Origin: a virus
Direction: 5' to 3' (one strand)
Virus record (IMG/VR): IMGVR_UViG_3300045988_160236
Coordinates: 95,578-159,577 of that record
Length of the DNA stretch: 64,000 bases
Positions 41,026-63,590 of this stretch are shown here, in pieces (position 1 is the stretch's first letter; each line of letters opens with the position of its first letter). A program made the position numbers and the translations under genes. The notes beneath the pieces are model-generated. The model was not told the origin of the DNA. It saw nothing but the letters and a program-made list of their open reading frames with translations, and made no database searches.

Positions 41026-41102
41026 GGGTGCATAACCGAATTCGAATCGGTGACCTCCAGAGTCACAATCTGGCGCTCTAAACCAACTGAGCTATACGCA
41101 CC
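41026..41102 (-). tRNA. tRNA-His (anticodon GTG) with encoded G-1
   Basis: Hand-folded cloverleaf: acceptor GTGCGTA/TATGCAC, G-1:C73, D-stem GCTC/GAGC, anticodon arm CCAGA-TTGTGAC-TCTGG, T-arm ACCGA-TTCGAAT-TCGGT. Confidence 0.7.
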
Positions 41103-41299
41103 ATATAGGAAGATTACTCTTCCTTATATACCTTGTGTTCCCTTAAATGTTTACCAATATAAACTCCTACACTTAAAGGAGCATAAATACCTGCAAACAA
41201 TAAAAGTATATAATCTGAAAACTTCCAAGGTTTTCCGTCATCAGAACCAAAAATAATACCTGCACAAATCAAGTAATACACTAAAGAGAAAATCATAGT

Positions 41300-41776
41300 C
41301 TATTCTTTAGGAATTAAAAAACTAGACGTAACCTTGGTCAAAAAATCACTATCGACTTTAACAATAGCATCTAATCTATCTTTACGTCTATATACTCTAA
41401 ACATATCATCTCTATTAGTAGTAAAATTGGAAAAATCAATTTTACCCTTTAGAGACCGTATTAAAGAAATTCTTGGACAGATACACCAAGTAGTTTTCAA
41501 CTCAAAGGCTATATAATCAGCTTGCCCGAATATCCAGCCTTTGTCTCCATGAACGTTTCTGAGTTCTATCCAATGAATATCATAGTTAGGAAGTAAATCA
41601 GAGCGGTTAATTTTCTTTGCAGCTTTAACATCGAAACTATTTGCTCCTACCCAGATATCAATATGACGATAAATGTCATCTTCCTTGCTAGCTTCTTCTA
41701 TTATAGAGGACGAAAGACTTTTAGCTTTGCAAAGAGCTAAGGCAAATTCTAATTCTTTCTCTTTACCTTTTTCCAA
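41300..41776 (-). CDS. hypothetical protein (158 aa)
   Basis: ORF track. Confidence 0.35.
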   Translation of the reverse strand: MEKGKEKELEFALALCKAKSLSSSIIEEASKEDDIYRHIDIWVGANSFDVKAAKKINRSDLLPNYDIHWIELRNVHGDKGWIFGQADYIAFELKTTWCICPRISLIRSLKGKIDFSNFTTNRDDMFRVYRRKDRLDAIVKVDSDFLTKVTSSFLIPKE

Positions 41777-42048
41777 AAAAACTATTCTGAATCATGCTTA
41801 CAATGGGCTTCCACCTCTTCTAAAGAACTAAATACTTTATCCTCCCTAATAGATTCCTGTTTTCCATCGATACGATAATAAATACTTGTATAATCAGGAT
41901 ATACATGAATTCTAATAGATGTAATTATGTAAGGAGTTGGATCTGGAACTTCAACATCAATGAAATATCCTCGAGAAAAGTCAAGAGCAGTTTTCTTTAA
42001 ATATACTTTCTGCCCTATATCATATTTTGTAGGTATTGTTGTAATCAT

Positions 42049-42594
42049 TTAATCTACAATTTGTACAAATCTCTGTCTTTCTGTAGTTACATAAGGATTC
42101 TTATCTACTACGTCAACAGTTATAATTTTTTGTTTTTTCGTAAACCATCTTGGAAGGAACCACTTCCTTTGCTTAATTGGTTCTTTTTTCCAAGAAGTAA
42201 TAATATACTTTTCATTGTTAAACTCGCTTGACACTCCTACTTCATTTGGATATTCAAGATGTAGACAAGTTTTAGCCCATTTATCTTGAATACACGTATC
42301 AAGTTTAAAACCAGGATCTTTAAATATAGTATCTCTAATAAAAATAGTATCTGACTTAGAAATATGTTCTAACTGATATTGTAAAGATTCTAATTTCTTA
42401 TCCTTTATTCTGAGTTCCTGAGCTACTTCTCGCATTTTCACAAGAATTGAATCATTCATGTGGGTCATTTGAGCTAACTCAAATCTAAAAACTATATTAC
42501 TTTCTTTCAGGGCCGAGTTTTCAGCCGAGTATGCTTTTTCATTATTAACGGATATATCTAATGATTTATTTAAATCATTTATCCTTACATTCAT
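42049..42594 (-). CDS. hypothetical protein (181 aa)
   Basis: ORF track. Confidence 0.35.
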   Translation of the reverse strand: MNVRINDLNKSLDISVNNEKAYSAENSALKESNIVFRFELAQMTHMNDSILVKMREVAQELRIKDKKLESLQYQLEHISKSDTIFIRDTIFKDPGFKLDTCIQDKWAKTCLHLEYPNEVGVSSEFNNEKYIITSWKKEPIKQRKWFLPRWFTKKQKIITVDVVDKNPYVTTERQRFVQIVD

Positions 42595-42743
42595 GAAGTA
42601 AACAGTTATTCCTAAAATAATTGCAACTCCACTTAAAATTTTAGTTATTCAACTTCTCATACGTTATATGTTTATAAATAGCCCATAACATAGGACTAAG
42701 TATGATAGCAATAGCTAATAGTAATCCAATCAACCACCACATA

Positions 42744-43280
42744 TTAATTATCGTAAAGTTCAACAATTTTGAATCTTAGTGCTTCACTAAATCGAATTAG
42801 TTCCATACGATCTTTTATTCTTTTCCCATACCATTTACCAGCCCCAGGATTATGTAGTTTAATTGCTCTATCAATATCTCTAGTTGGATTATAATGGTCA
42901 TTCATCATTTCAAACATAGTTAAAGCTTTATCAAGATCCCAAGCATCCTCTAACACAAAATTAGTGTTATATAAGTTATTAACTTCATCAACATAAATTT
43001 TAGTAATTTGGAATGGGCCTATTGCATTTTTACTAGATTTTACTTTTGGATTTCTCTCACATTCTACTTCAACAAGTGCCATGATAAAAACTTGCCACTC
43101 TGTAAGAGAATCACGAGTTTCTGTGATTGTAGTAATTGAATTAGTTAGAACTACGGGGTTTGGTTTAATTGGGCTCCCAAATATTGCAAATATTCCAATA
43201 ATAGTTACACAACCTATAAAAATTCGTTTATAAATCATATTTTTAAGTTTTATAGCAGAGGTGGCAGGACTCGAACCCAC
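42744..43280 (-). CDS. membrane-anchored lytic-transglycosylase-like protein
   Basis: N-terminal TM segment; 'NAIGPFQITKIY' resembles the SLT catalytic-region 'GLMQI' context. Confidence 0.35.
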   Translation of the reverse strand: MGSSPATSAIKLKNMIYKRIFIGCVTIIGIFAIFGSPIKPNPVVLTNSITTITETRDSLTEWQVFIMALVEVECERNPKVKSSKNAIGPFQITKIYVDEVNNLYNTNFVLEDAWDLDKALTMFEMMNDHYNPTRDIDRAIKLHNPGAGKWYGKRIKDRMELIRFSEALRFKIVELYDN

Positions 43281-43340
43281 ACCTGGAGTTTTGGAGGCTC
43301 CCGTTTACGGTTTTGCTTACCACTACAGTTTTCACTGCCT
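43257..43340 (-). tRNA. tRNA-like gene with tRNA-Trp-type anticodon arm (loop CUCCAAA, anticodon CCA); acceptor/D region non-canonical, possibly a pseudogene
   Basis: T-arm GTGGG-TTCGAGT-CCTGC; anticodon arm GGAG(C)-CTCCAAA-(A)CTCC identical to the canonical Trp loop. I could not find a 5' strand complementary to the 3' acceptor CACCTCT, and about 5 extra nt lie between the D and anticodon arms. Confidence 0.35.
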
Positions 43341-43963
43341 TTCGTTTGTGGTCTAGAGTACGTCTTCACCATATCTTTCGACTTAGGTGCACGATTATCT
43401 ACTCGTTCGCGGCTAGAATTCCTTCTATTCCGACGTCGTTACCATCAGCATTATCTGTTAAAGATTCAACGTTATCATCGTGTCCACTATCAGTGTTTCC
43501 ACTAATAGGCTCCATTTGTTTAAAATTATTTTTGTAATCTTGACAACTGTTTACACCAATAGAACTTCTATACTGAGAAGAGAAATGTACAGGTAAAATA
43601 TATAAGTCTTTAGTATCTAAGTCAACTCCAATAAAATAATCTATATCTTTTTCAGTATACAGTTTTACTTTATATTCTCCCATATTATGAGATATTTTTC
43701 TCACTGGAATTATTCTTCTACCATTACTTTCTATTTGTACTGTTTTAATCTGCAGTTTAATATATTTATTATTTTTTTCTACAATTAAATCTACTTTTCC
43801 ATTCTCTAAAACAGGTTTAAATAGATTATACCCGTTTTCAATAAATTTCTGTTCTACTAGTAGGCTACCTAAGTAACCCTTTTCAATTGTTTTTCAATCA
43901 CTCATAATTTTATTCAGTTAAAGACCGCTGTGCTACCATTACACTACACCCCTATCCTTTCTA

Positions 43964-62207: not shown

Positions 62208-62280
62208 GAGAGGTATAAGAGATTCAAACTCTCCCCTTGTGATTGGAAGTCACATATGCTATCACTAACACCAATACCTC
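62208..62280 (-). tRNA. tRNA-Gly (anticodon TCC)
   Basis: Perfect acceptor GAGGTAT/ATACCTC; perfect anticodon arm TGTGA-CTTCCAA-TCACA; T-arm GAGAG-TTTGAAT-CTCTT. Confidence 0.65.
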
Positions 62281-62493
62281 ATAAAAGGTCTCTATAAAGC
62301 TCCGTAGATTAAAAGTCTATTGCTAAATAAAGGTTGCTGTAAGAGACCTTGTAAAACACAACTGTGAAATTTTCGCTTTGAATCATTTCTGATCTCTGGA
62401 CTAATACTGATAGATTAGAGTGCCTTCATATCAGAGCCTGCAATGTCCATACCGCACTCTCGGCTTTACATTTCACTACAAATCCTAGTTGTG

Positions 62494-62979
62494 TTATTTC
62501 TGCTCTACTATCCAAGCATTCAATCCTCTGGAAGAAGGCCTTTCATTATCAAGTAAATTCTTCAGATCTATCTTACCAATATCTGAGAATTTAATATTGT
62601 AGTAGCATCCAGTAACAGGCATGATACTTGCTACATTACTTGTATCAACATGAGCAACGATACAAGTAATATCGTGTGCAAATGCCAAACCTAACTCCCA
62701 GGCAGTACCACTGTCAGAATAATGACCATGATAGATTGCAAGTACACAATCTGCATTTCTAATCTGTTCTACATCATAGTCAAACACTTCACGTGCCCAC
62801 TCTTCATTAGTTAACTTTTCACCATTTTCAATGAAGTGTTCCATAGGAACTATAACTTCATATCCTTGATTACGCAGAATGAGTGCTGCAGTTTCTACAA
62901 GATGCCGTTCTTTTTCATTGAAAAACGGACCTGCAAGATAAATCTTTATCATTTTATTATGCTTTACATACTTTTTCAA
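62494..62979 (-). CDS. nucleoside 2-deoxyribosyltransferase-family protein
   Basis: N-terminal 'KIYLAGPFFNEKER' NDT-family signature; 161 aa. Confidence 0.5.
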   Translation of the reverse strand: MKKYVKHNKMIKIYLAGPFFNEKERHLVETAALILRNQGYEVIVPMEHFIENGEKLTNEEWAREVFDYDVEQIRNADCVLAIYHGHYSDSGTAWELGLAFAHDITCIVAHVDTSNVASIMPVTGCYYNIKFSDIGKIDLKNLLDNERPSSRGLNAWIVEQK

Positions 62980-62992
62980 AAGTATAATCTTC

Positions 62993-63395
62993 TCAATTAA
63001 TTCTCTTATATTGATTTTTACCTACGTTAACGTAAGGGTGTCTTATTGTAATCATAGTTTGTCCCTCAACAACTTCGATAGGTAATAAAAATAATACATT
63101 ACTTTGTAGGTTATAACACGCAAAATAATCTATTTCTTCATGAGTATATTTGTGCTTCTCCCCAGAGTTCCTGTGCATTGTTGAACTAACCAGGCTAATA
63201 ACAAATTTCTCTGAATCAATTCACTCTTCAAAGGTTTTTACCTGAACTTTATTTAATTTTCCATTAAAGTCAGCAATTAAATCTGACTTTTCATTATCTC
63301 CAAATGGAATATATACAGGTATTTGAAGTTCAACAAATTTAGCAAGGGCTTTCGCCTCACCTATATTTCCCAATTGTTTAGTAGTCATTTTTATT
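62993..63395 (-). CDS. PD-(D/E)XK nuclease (Hjc/restriction-endonuclease-like fold); in-frame TGA at about 63221-63223
   Basis: 'GNIGEAKALAKFVELQIPVYIPFGDNEKSDLIADFNGKLNKVQVKT' (E…PxGD…DLIA…VQVK) in frame with ORF 62993..63178. Confidence 0.5.
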
Positions 63396-63404
63396 CTTTT
63401 TAAG

Positions 63405-63477
63405 CGGGAGCACCAAGATTCGAACTTGGAATCTATCGGTTAACAGCCGATTGCGTTAGCCATTGCGCCATACTCCC
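63405..63477 (-). tRNA. tRNA-Asn (anticodon GTT)
   Basis: Acceptor GGGAGTA/TGCTCCC, G73; D-stem GCGC/(A)CGC, AATGGCTA loop; perfect anticodon arm ATCGG-CTGTTAA-CCGAT; T-arm CCAAG-TTCGAAT-CTTGG. Confidence 0.65.
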
Positions 63478-63544
63478 AAAGTGGGCTAGGTTACTCTAAT
63501 TTACATCCTACCATTAGACGACTATAGTACTTCTCAGCCCTGAA

Positions 63545-63590
63545 GTTTCCTATAACTGGGACTCGAACCCAGATCGCTGTTCAACAAAAT
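63545..63590 (-). pseudogene. tRNA 3'-half remnant (T-arm CTGGG-TTCGAGT-CCCAG only)
   Basis: Canonical T-arm, but no matching acceptor 5' strand or anticodon arm found within 120 nt. Confidence 0.3.

Follow-up and report, generated by a model that had tools for sequence, protein, structure and literature searches.

A split tRNA gene with a UCA anticodon arm and a second, CCA-bearing arm in a phage that most likely reads UGA as tryptophan

A stretch of phage DNA of 64,000 nucleotides (nt), comprising positions 95,578 to 159,577 of the IMG/VR record IMGVR_UViG_3300045988_160236 and referred to here as the window, probably encodes its own UGA-decoding transfer RNA (tRNA). The gene lies on the minus strand at 43953-43256, is split by an insert that resembles a group I intron and carries, beside a UCA anticodon arm, an additional arm with a CCA loop that would supply identity for tryptophanyl-tRNA synthetase (TrpRS). 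The original prediction for this region had held that no recognisable UGA-decoding tRNA occurs among about 15 phage tRNAs, and had singled out a structurally odd, Trp-like element with a CCA anticodon at 43257-43340. That element proved to be the 3' exon of a tRNA(UCA) gene; its oddity and its tie to UGA decoding were borne out, and the absence of a UGA decoder was not.

Thirteen contiguous tRNAs were found in the window between 41026 and 63477, all on the minus strand like the split gene; 12 were called by ARAGORN with default settings, and Rfam added tRNA-Gly(TCC). Their anticodons (GTG, TAG, GCT, TCT, TAT, ACG, GTA, GAA, an 8-nt loop, TGC, TGT, TCC and GTT) are exactly those folded by hand in the original prediction, and neither tool found a TCA anticodon among them. 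A contiguous tRNA-Trp(CCA) gene at 43257-43340 was considered and dropped, as the acceptor 5' strand and the D arm are absent and the Rfam tRNA covariance model scored it at 17.9 bits against a gathering score of 29. When introns were allowed, ARAGORN reported tRNA(tca) c[43255,43953] i(34,605), with a 605-nt insert after position 34. At the threshold used, this mode returned many false positives (61 calls in the window), and the call was therefore checked by comparison with relatives. The gene so defined is interrupted between the anticodon bases U34 and C35, with the junction CUU|CAAA, and brings the number of tRNA genes to 14 rather than about 15.

The 5' exon (43921-43953), called by ARAGORN with introns allowed and matched at at least 46 phage loci, reads AGGGGTG-TA-GTGTAATGGTAGCAC-A-GCGGT-CTT. 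It comprises the acceptor 5' strand AGGGGTG (43953-43947), U8 and A9, the D arm GTGTAATGGTAGCAC (43944-43930), A26, the anticodon-stem 5' strand GCGGT (43928-43924) and the loop bases C32, U33 and U34 (43923-43921). The 3' exon (43256-43315), delimited by the same ARAGORN call and by unsplit alleles, begins with C35, A36, A37 and A38 and the anticodon-stem 3' strand ACCGT (43315-43307), followed by the linker AAACG. It continues with an extra, pseudo-anticodon arm at the position of the variable arm (43285-43301, delimited by covariation in relatives), the linker AGGT, the T arm GTGGG-TTCGAGT-CCTGC (43264-43280, called by ARAGORN with introns allowed), the acceptor 3' strand CACCTCT (43263-43257) and G73 (43256). 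The CUUCAAA loop of the first arm is thus assembled from both exons. As the original prediction had observed, the CUCCAAA loop is present in the 3' element and an adjacent 5' acceptor strand is absent; the loop lies at 43296-43290, with CCA at 43294-43292 and a C.A mismatch at the loop-closing pair. The 5' exon furnishes precisely the absent strand, opposite CACCTCT-G (43263-43256). With the 605-nt insert left out, the gene has a 7-bp acceptor stem, a D arm, a 5-bp anticodon stem with a 7-nt loop (U33 and a purine at 37) and a T arm with a loop of the GTTCGA type, as in a canonical cloverleaf, and the spliced tRNA is predicted to be 93 nt long, with the hairpin GGAGC-CUCCAAA-ACUCC between the UCA arm and the T arm.

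Searches of phage contigs with the 5' exon recovered close relatives with the same split gene, together with a locus (L005) bearing an unsplit tRNA(UCA), and broader searches brought the totals to 42 split and 9 unsplit genes. Unsplit alleles read directly through the predicted junction (...GGTCTT|CAAAACCGT...), as does the tRNA of L005 (...GGTCTT|CAAAATCGC...). The acceptor stems pair across the insert in every lineage (AGGGGTG/CACCTCT, GGGGATG/CATCTCT, AGGAGCT/AGCTCCT and GCGAGCT/AGCTCGT), and the T stem shows changes on both sides among relatives. Over 18 distinct sequences, 98.9% of the cells of the five-helix cloverleaf pair, versus 36-48% when the partners are slid; both-side changes occur at 12 pairs, and none of 500 shuffles reached the observed values. 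G73 was found in all 34 distinct family sequences, and of the 18 aligned sequences, 16 have A-U and 2 have G.U as the first acceptor pair. Because unsplit alleles cross the junction and the acceptor and T stems covary across the insert, these comparisons indicate that the split tRNA(UCA) gene is real and under selection. A UCA tRNA is thus in substance present in the window, its 5' exon lying 605 nt upstream of the odd element, and a suppressor encoded beyond the window, which had been offered as one way out, is not needed.

Standard annotation overlooked this family. On genomic DNA the split gene received no call from ARAGORN with default settings, and the 17.9-bit Rfam match covers the 3' exon only. 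Default ARAGORN found 0 of 41 split genes in the family and gave the type tRNA-SeC to 25 of 27 unsplit ones. In an unsplit member, nt 6-39 are 91% identical to annotated tRNA-Trp genes of Bacillus phages, and nt 47-93 of the family tRNA match annotated tRNA-Trp(CCA); the whole two-arm tRNA was found in no annotated phage genome, although each half separately matches annotated tRNA-Trp genes. A scan of metagenomes yielded only near-identical members of one and the same lineage. None of the related loci was found to have another Trp or UCA tRNA.

The premise of UGA recoding was upheld by the coding pattern of the window. Reading TGA as sense raised the minus-strand coding coverage in an open reading frame (ORF) analysis from 80.9% to 89.3%, and reading TAG or TAA as sense gave no rise. 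The TGA-sense ORFs hold 65 in-frame TGA and 239 TGG codons. Five TGA-terminated ORFs run in frame into the next ORF, and 3 of these junctions fall within conserved motifs: LS*MALMQQNR of a DnaB-type helicase, F*NAKFDL of the polymerase Exo II motif and G*EGLVIR of ligase motif IV, with the TGA shown as an asterisk. In-frame TGAs lie within the conserved domains of DNA polymerase I, DNA ligase, the DnaB-type helicase and RNase H. The standard code was assumed at first, as ORFs of at least 100 amino acids cover about 79% of the window under it, two ATGA overlaps resemble TGA stops, and ribonucleotide reductase, NAMPT, a Dda-like helicase and RNA ligase are full-length. It was rejected because in-frame TGAs stand inside conserved motifs and the gain in coverage is specific to TGA as sense.

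Alignments point to tryptophan as the amino acid inserted. One TGA of the RNase H gene (37169-37612) stands opposite the conserved Trp of DLW in 4 of 4 solved homologues, and the other two stand opposite W/W/F/K and F/F/F/Y. A TGA of the XPB-type helicase aligns with the W of ITQW, and those of the DNA ligase align with Y/A and Y/G in aligned ligases. In five aligned proteins, TGA never stood opposite Ser, and both code 25 (TGA as Gly) and UGA as Ser were ruled out by these residue-level alignments. Among close relatives, TGA<->TGG is the commonest codon exchange (3 of 8 events, a sample that allows no more than consistency with Trp). Across the loci of the tRNA family, the median coverage gain was +10.2% with TGA as sense versus +6.4% with TAG as sense, the TGA gain being the larger in 31 of 43; at bacterial control loci the gains were +3.6% and +1.5%. 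Collectively, these data suggest that TGA is most likely a sense codon for Trp (code 4) in this genome.

The use of TGA is patchy. A block of about 17 kb at approximately 44.6-61.4 kb, with the genes for NAMPT, a Ro/TROVE-like protein, SPFH and others, is almost free of in-frame TGA. The ribonucleotide reductase, Dda helicase and RNA ligase genes have none or one, and replication genes and endonucleases have up to 9. This unevenness may reflect the timing of expression relative to the availability of the suppressor.

The extra arm is found with and without the insert; the unsplit allele at locus L022 reads ...GCGGT-CTTCAAA-ACCGT-AAAGA-CGGGT-CTCCAAA-ACCCG-GGGT-GTGGG.... Among the 18 aligned sequences, its stem shows both-side changes at 3 of 5 pairs over a CUCCAAA loop that is unchanged throughout. 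When genes with U34 were retrieved by a pattern that did not include the extra arm, 50 of 51 complete genes had it. Of 10 genes with C34 and the same 5' half, 9 were one-arm tRNA-Trp(CCA) genes of the ordinary kind; the extra arm was present in 0 of those 9, and the one-arm loci lie on contigs densely coding in the standard code. A two-loop pattern scan filtered for four paired stems added 26 further, more diverse phage examples, all with G73 (and with the CUCCAAA loop required by the pattern). Two-arm tRNAs were rare among the 120 matches listed in a bacterial scan, 1 of which, tRNA-Sec-like, passed the stem filter. The simplest origin of the two-arm tRNA is a tandem duplication of the anticodon arm.

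The acceptor identity of tRNA-Trp is present in the family (G73 with A1-U72 or G1.U72), and C34-C35-A36 is found not in the canonical arm but only in the extra arm. G73, C34-C35-A36 and the 1-72 pair are the major identity elements of bacterial tRNA-Trp (PMC9976931). [quoted passage not shown] Because the CUCCAAA loop is unchanging and is found only together with a UCA anticodon, which lacks C34, the CCA arm could serve as a spare identity element for the host TrpRS, a suggestion that we regard as near the balance point, if slightly on its doubtful side.

Two loci that share the 5' half are described here for completeness. L005 (IMGVR_UViG_2651869516_000092, 10809-10881, plus strand) has the only one-arm tRNA(UCA) with the family's 5' half; its contig, at 27% GC, gains strongly in coverage with TGA as sense (+14.8%), and it is possible that its host uses code 4, so that a pseudo-anticodon is unneeded. 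L213 (IMGVR_UViG_3300035499_000343, approximately 11001-11021, minus strand) has the same 5' half with C34, followed by intron-like sequence (...GGTCTC|TTGAAAATTGG...AATGGAGCC...GGGGAAACCC...), on a contig whose coverage rises more with TAG than with TGA as sense. This may be a tRNA-Trp(CCA) gene with a related intron, perhaps inserted at a different site.

It could also be that, as the original prediction had considered, the host already uses code 4; the phage tRNA would then be a supplement and the extra arm a neutral relic of the duplication. Code-4 lineages occur in guts. The tRNA 5' half was absent from all 185,579 bacterial species representatives, and L005, an AT-rich TGA-recoded contig, has a one-arm tRNA(UCA); both observations would fit such a host. 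However, a neutral relic would not be expected to keep a 7-nt loop over a covarying stem in dozens of diverged phages, and the tie of the extra arm to U34 (50 of 51) and not to C34 (0 of 9) would be left unexplained. Megablast of the window against the phage collection gave no match, and the closest protein relatives belong to phages of the gut, of Bacteroides and of Bacillus. For gut phages with code 4, the hosts predicted by Borges et al. use the standard code. We therefore consider a code-4 host unlikely, although of the alternatives it fares best.

The division of labour between the two arms could also be the reverse, with the CCA arm decoding and the UCA arm and intron as passengers, so that a tRNA-Trp(CCA) would read UGG, and perhaps UGA by a Hirsh-like wobble; or the RNA could be bistable. 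The second arm, a 3-4-nt linker, the T arm and the acceptor strand are colinear with an ordinary tRNA-Trp(CCA), the 7-nt loop does not change, and a dual reader would be harmless, since both readings insert Trp. The Hirsh UGA suppressor is reportedly an E. coli tRNA-Trp(CCA) with a G24A change in the D arm, and the D stem of the family has U11-A24 as in that suppressor. This pair is not specific to recoding, however, since standard-code phages have it too in their one-arm tRNA-Trp(CCA) genes. Among 33 sequences, the second arm has a stem of 4-9 bp, whose loop-closing pair is a C.A mismatch in the window copy; the stem of the first arm, by contrast, has the canonical 5 bp in 31 of 33, with A26 before it in 32 of 33 and a purine-rich linker after it. 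Class II topology places the decoding arm next to the D arm, and a mere passenger would not keep an intact CUUCAAA loop on a covarying stem. Because of these stem lengths and A26, and because the order acceptor, D, arm 1, arm 2, T is that of class II tRNAs, we infer that the UCA arm is the anticodon arm and that the second arm is a long variable arm displaying the Trp anticodon loop. Decoding by the CCA arm is accordingly given little credence. The original prediction had also raised a CCA tRNA acting as a Hirsh-type UGA reader; this was right in that the same molecule would read UGA, and wrong in that a separate canonical UCA anticodon arm would do so.

The insert (43316-43920, 605 nt) lies between nt 34 and 35 (U|CA), the junction being taken from unsplit alleles; it is preceded by U and ends in G (43316), giving ...CUU|...G|CAAA. 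At the same site, relatives have inserts of 341-707 nt in ORF-less, PD-(D/E)XK and HNH-like versions, and 42 intron-plus alleles are known versus 9 intron-minus alleles, the endonuclease ORF being optional. In the window, the intron ORF (43399-43905) encodes a 168-residue PD-(D/E)XK homing endonuclease of the I-Ssp6803I type (Pfam PF11645 PDDEXK_5, 54.5 bits vs a cut-off of 26.1; phrog_5018), has an in-frame TGA at codon 4 and extends at its 3' end into the ribozyme core. Its best match in the PDB is 2OST (E=0.0075), the entry of I-Ssp6803I, a homing endonuclease encoded by the tRNA-fMet intron of Synechocystis. Both I-Ssp6803I and its fold have been described (PMC3384342).

Alignment of the relatives resolved the intron into two modules, a variable ORF cassette directly after the 5' splice site and a conserved 3' core of 198 nt (43316-43513). 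The core is kept while the cassette is swapped: L006 has an HNH/EndoVII-like cassette (below threshold in Pfam), L020 and L026 have a truncated one, and the 341-360-nt versions have none. In a core model drawn by hand, the guide GAG (43512-43510) pairs with the exon end CUU, so that a U.G pair stands at the splice site, and is followed by P2 (43508-43487, with a GAAA loop), P3 (43482-43478/43394-43390) and P4-P6 (43471-43408, with P4 and P5 tentative). P7 is formed by GAGUA (43404-43400) and UACUC (43360-43356); P8 (43389-43367) contains an 11-nt GAAA receptor (CCUAAG/UAUGG); and J8/7 (43366-43361) reads AAGACG. P9 (43352-43319, with a GAAA loop) is followed by AAG and the terminal G at 43316, and the model has three GAAA loops in all. 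When the model was placed on eight closely related cores, one of which had given rise to it, 97.7% of cells paired versus 26-52% when slid; compensatory changes were seen in P7, in two pairs of P8 and in the P9 hairpin, while P3 was invariant and P4 and P5 were weak.

In P7, J8/7 and the end of P9, the core shares the architecture of the Rfam group I model RF00028, whose consensus, as seen on an intron in the thyX gene of the window, runs GACUA...AAGAUA-UAGUC...GAAA...aG; one P7 pair is flipped in the insert. ORF-less sister introns at the same site have the canonical GACUA/UAGUC. They start CGA-UUG-GAG, in which GAG pairs with the exon end CUU, with a U.G pair at the splice site, and UUG pairs with the start of the 3' exon, CAA, as P10. 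Several assignments were tried and set aside: AAGAC as the guide sequence lacked the U.G wobble and was wrongly placed; ACCAC/GUGGU, tried as P7, had its G-C pair the wrong way round and was reassigned to P9; the P5 pairing AUCU/AGAU was contradicted by variants of L038, and a revised 3-bp P5 is still weak. A plain minimum-free-energy fold of the intron was uninformative on the pseudoknotted core. Collectively, the insert appears to work like a group I intron, membership of that class being partly demonstrated, and self-splicing would follow from this likeness.

Removal of the insert by proteins, namely the endonuclease together with phage RNA ligase or repair enzymes, would accommodate the silence of Rfam on the insert and the very short P1. 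The window does encode an RNA ligase (7631-9010), an RlaP-type nucleotidyltransferase (23577-24674) and a Ro/TROVE-like RNA-binding protein (55489-57180). However, we know of no tRNA-splicing endonuclease pathway in bacteria, and the U and G boundaries, the modelled P3/P7 pseudoknot with compensatory changes, the GAAA receptor and the three GAAA loops are hallmarks of group I introns. The likeness to RF00028 in P7, J8/7 and P9, the canonical core in sister introns at the same site and the homing-endonuclease cassettes argue in the same direction. Protein-based removal is thus judged quite improbable, and self-splicing is preferred.

A long extra arm together with G73 could instead mark a substrate of seryl-tRNA synthetase (SerRS), so that UGA would be read as Ser or through a Sec-like pathway; SerRS does recognise a long variable arm and G73 (PMC7609411), and ARAGORN's typing of most unsplit members as tRNA-SeC would agree. 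In the five aligned proteins, however, TGA faces Trp or aromatic residues and never Ser. In tRNA-Sec, the acceptor/T branch is 8/5 (13 bp) and the D stem has 6 bp and a loop of 4 nt; the family has 7/5 acceptor/T stems and a 4-bp D stem with a 7-8-nt loop, and no Rfam tRNA-Sec match was obtained at the locus. About 65 dispersed in-frame TGAs are incompatible with insertion dependent on a selenocysteine insertion sequence (SECIS), and charging by SerRS is therefore very improbable. That the gene is dead, broken by a homing-endonuclease cassette, with UGA decoded from outside the window, would account for the lack of calls by standard tools and for the many false calls of ARAGORN's intron mode, but is scarcely credible, since both exons are retained, and compensate for each other's changes across the insert, in 41 split genes of varied sample origin, ORF-less introns keep a structured core, and the related loci have no other Trp or UCA tRNA.

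The preferred reading is accordingly that of an intron-split suppressor in which the UCA arm decodes and the CCA arm is recognised by TrpRS, and the following course of events can be proposed. The transcript would self-splice by guanosine-initiated transesterification, with the exon end CUU paired to the guide GAG, and would yield a 93-nt tRNA with the junction ...GGUCUU|CAAAACCGU. This product would have A1-U72, G73, a 5-bp UCA anticodon arm and a CUCCAAA extra arm presumably copied from the anticodon arm of tRNA-Trp. On the ribosome, the UCA arm would read UGA, and probably UGG. The CCA arm would provide the C34-C35-A36 element required by bacterial TrpRS, allowing a standard-code host to charge the suppressor with Trp. 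In-frame TGAs are present in both types of intron endonuclease gene, PD-(D/E)XK and HNH-like, and because of this their translation would depend on the very tRNA that they interrupt; the endonuclease would be translatable only once spliced suppressor exists. In its fullest form, the proposal is of a natural pseudo-anticodon tRNA in which a Trp arm has been duplicated, the UCA copy decodes, the CCA copy is a handle for unmodified TrpRS, and a mobile self-splicing intron gates one lineage. This fuller version is plausible, although we would rate it somewhat short of an even call; if true, it would uncouple the codon read by the ribosome from the identity read by the synthetase.

Several points weigh against this interpretation. 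The UCA loop of the first arm was part of every search pattern, so that its invariance is by construction, as is that of the CUCCAAA loop in the 26 members found by the two-arm pattern. We infer the role of TrpRS decoy; the effect described by Mukai needed an engineered extra binding domain, and a variable arm that reaches the anticodon-binding domain of TrpRS is without structural precedent. The protein relatives are a mix of Bacteroides, Bacillus and Listeria phages and gut phages. The window is about one third of the genome (related contigs measure 145-178 kb), and a TrpRS, RF1 or another tRNA may lie outside it. For the intron, covariation comes from only the eight related cores mentioned above, and Rfam gave no match to the window intron even at E<=10; the thyX intron of the window, by comparison, scores 66.4 bits. 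The sister introns at this site were not called at threshold either: RF00028, with a gathering score of 50, matched the ORF-less L017 homologue over its full length at 15.3 bits (E=0.19). P1 has only 3 bp and P10 1-3 bp, and the assignment of P4 and P5 is contradicted by some variants.

The remaining tRNA genes of the window, all on the minus strand, were mostly called by both ARAGORN and Rfam. These comprise tRNA-His(GTG) at 41026-41101 (Rfam 66.8 bits), tRNA-Leu(TAG) at 44578-44660, tRNA-Arg(TCT) at 47006-47091 (86 nt, with a class II-like long extra arm), tRNA-Ile(TAT) at 48533-48608, tRNA-Arg(ACG) at 48954-49026, tRNA-Phe(GAA) at 60051-60124, a tRNA with an 8-nt anticodon loop (GTGT) at 60270-60342 (Rfam 48.5 bits), tRNA-Ala(TGC) at 60518-60589 (weak acceptor stem; Rfam 39.1 bits), tRNA-Thr(TGT) at 61131-61213 (83 nt, with a long extra arm) and tRNA-Asn(GTT) at 63404-63477. 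tRNA-Ser(GCT) at 45361-45446 was called by ARAGORN, Rfam giving only a sub-threshold match in the tRNA-Sec clan, and tRNA-Gly(TCC) at 62209-62280 scored 49.7 bits in Rfam and was found by ARAGORN only at a relaxed threshold. tRNA-Tyr(GTA) at 57723-57809 was called by ARAGORN only, with nothing from Rfam even at E<=10; it has an A.G mismatch in the predicted acceptor stem and overlaps the start of an ORF at 57238-57786.

Some of these tRNAs have unusual features. The tRNA at 60270-60342 was reported by ARAGORN as 'gtgt', ambiguous between His and Thr, and its 8-nt loop is the architecture of +1 frameshift-suppressor tRNAs. Long class II-like extra arms, as on tRNA-Arg(UCU) and tRNA-Thr(UGU), are unusual for these isoacceptors. 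That of tRNA-Arg(UCU) covaries among relatives (L002 and L004; GGCU/AGUC vs GAGC/GCUC), and in other relatives the same place is taken by unrelated, short tRNA-Arg(UCU) alleles.

Further mobile elements were found on the minus strand of the window. The thyX (Thy1) thymidylate synthase gene is split by a group I intron recognised by Rfam (1211-1574, 66.4 bits), with flanking ORFs at 1550-2059 and 758-1180. The DNA polymerase I gene (3369-5231, with 3 in-frame TGAs) ends right after motif C (VHDKRCCA*), in an interrupted region at approximately 2400-3380; its stop is followed by a LAGLIDADG ORF (2642-3241), a group I-type 'AAGATATAGTCC' element and a last exon, '...IMEINLEAPAEIAEEIG...DYWIHE*'. 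This interruption looks like a second endonuclease-bearing intron, without an Rfam call. A second PF11645 PD-(D/E)XK ORF (62957-63388, 91.6 bits, 2 in-frame TGAs) is free-standing and directly downstream of tRNA-Asn, and a free-standing HNH ORF (61439-62173, 3 in-frame TGAs) lies between tRNA-Thr and tRNA-Gly. At L017, another group I intron recognised by Rfam (3660-3925, minus strand, 84 bits) is situated a few kb from the split tRNA gene. The split-tRNA lineage is generally rich in mobile introns. The RNA ligase (phrog_968), RlaP (PF10127) and Ro/TROVE-like (DUF7788, phrog_850) genes, likewise on the minus strand, form an RNA-repair-type set that may be linked to tRNA maintenance or to defence against anticodon nucleases.

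These findings bear on the open problem of how phages switch a standard-code host to UGA as Trp. Splitting by mobile introns hides some suppressor genes from annotation tools, which would explain part of the missing-suppressor problem in code-4 phages; pipelines for tRNAs and genetic codes in viromes should permit introns and stop typing such genes as tRNA-Sec. If the proposed mechanism is true, a widespread phage tRNA family keeps a spare CCA arm for TrpRS while the UCA arm decodes. On the literature searched, the engineered pseudo-anticodon tRNAs of genetic-code expansion would then have their first counterpart in nature, and its two-arm scaffold could be useful in the design of orthogonal suppressor tRNAs.

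The insert resembles the group I introns of bacterial tRNA genes (cyanobacterial and plastid tRNA-Leu(UAA) at 34/35, Synechocystis tRNA-fMet, Azoarcus tRNA-Ile, and Patescibacteria tRNA-Asn and tRNA-Asp) in its insertion into the anticodon loop, and 34/35 is the reported site of bacterial tRNA-Leu group I introns (PMC13011429). It shares with them the U before the 5' splice site, the terminal G, a short P1 to which bases of the anticodon loop contribute, and a compact core that has GAAA loops and a receptor for a tetraloop. Also shared are a PD-(D/E)XK endonuclease from the I-Ssp6803I family, which is optional, and the escape of the tRNA gene from standard annotation tools. Unlike those introns, it resides in a phage genome and interrupts a stop-codon suppressor tRNA, it scores below threshold with RF00028, and its endonuclease ORF, with an in-frame TGA, is placed after the 5' splice site and before the guide sequence. 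A review from 2014 noted that all phage group I introns then known were in protein-coding genes despite the many phage tRNA genes (PMC3984707). A literature search, which was not exhaustive, turned up neither phage tRNA genes with introns nor duplicated anticodon arms; on that literature, a group I intron within a tRNA gene of a phage would be a first report. Neither group I introns of bacterial tRNA genes nor suppressor tRNAs of phages are new in themselves.

Among phage suppressors, the closest parallel is with the recoded gut phages surveyed by Borges et al. Like their code-4 phages, the present one has a phage tRNA(UCA) in a TGA-recoded gut genome of about 150-180 kb, presumably relies on the host TrpRS and has intron endonucleases with in-frame TGAs. 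In that survey, TGA suppressors were detected in only 35% of code-4 genomes, undetected non-canonical tRNAs were suspected, and it was asked how host synthetases that read the anticodon come to charge suppressors. The suppressor described here differs in being split by an intron and in having a duplicated anticodon arm, neither of which was described there.

The two-arm tRNA also recalls other suppressors. Like the Hirsh suppressor, it would be a Trp tRNA that reads UGA, and its 11-24 pair is U-A in all 18 aligned family members; unlike that suppressor, it has a genuine UCA anticodon arm, and U11-A24 is not diagnostic. With tRNA-Sec, selC* tRNA-Cys and allo-tRNAs it shares a UCA anticodon, a long extra arm and G73. 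It differs from them in its 7/5 rather than 8/5, 8/4 or 9/3 stems, its 4-bp D stem, its A1-U72 pair and its conserved CUCCAAA extra-arm loop, and in that UGA would be a general Trp codon. The engineered pseudo-anticodon V-arm tRNAs (PMC7590224) come nearest to the proposed function, as the long variable arm of a suppressor mimics the cognate anticodon arm to recruit the synthetase. Those tRNAs are synthetic and use 9/3 allo-tRNA scaffolds, GUG (His) pseudo-anticodons and a histidyl-tRNA synthetase (HisRS) fused to an extra binding domain, whereas the phage tRNAs form a natural family with 7/5 stems and specificity for Trp, and would make use of the unmodified TrpRS of the host.

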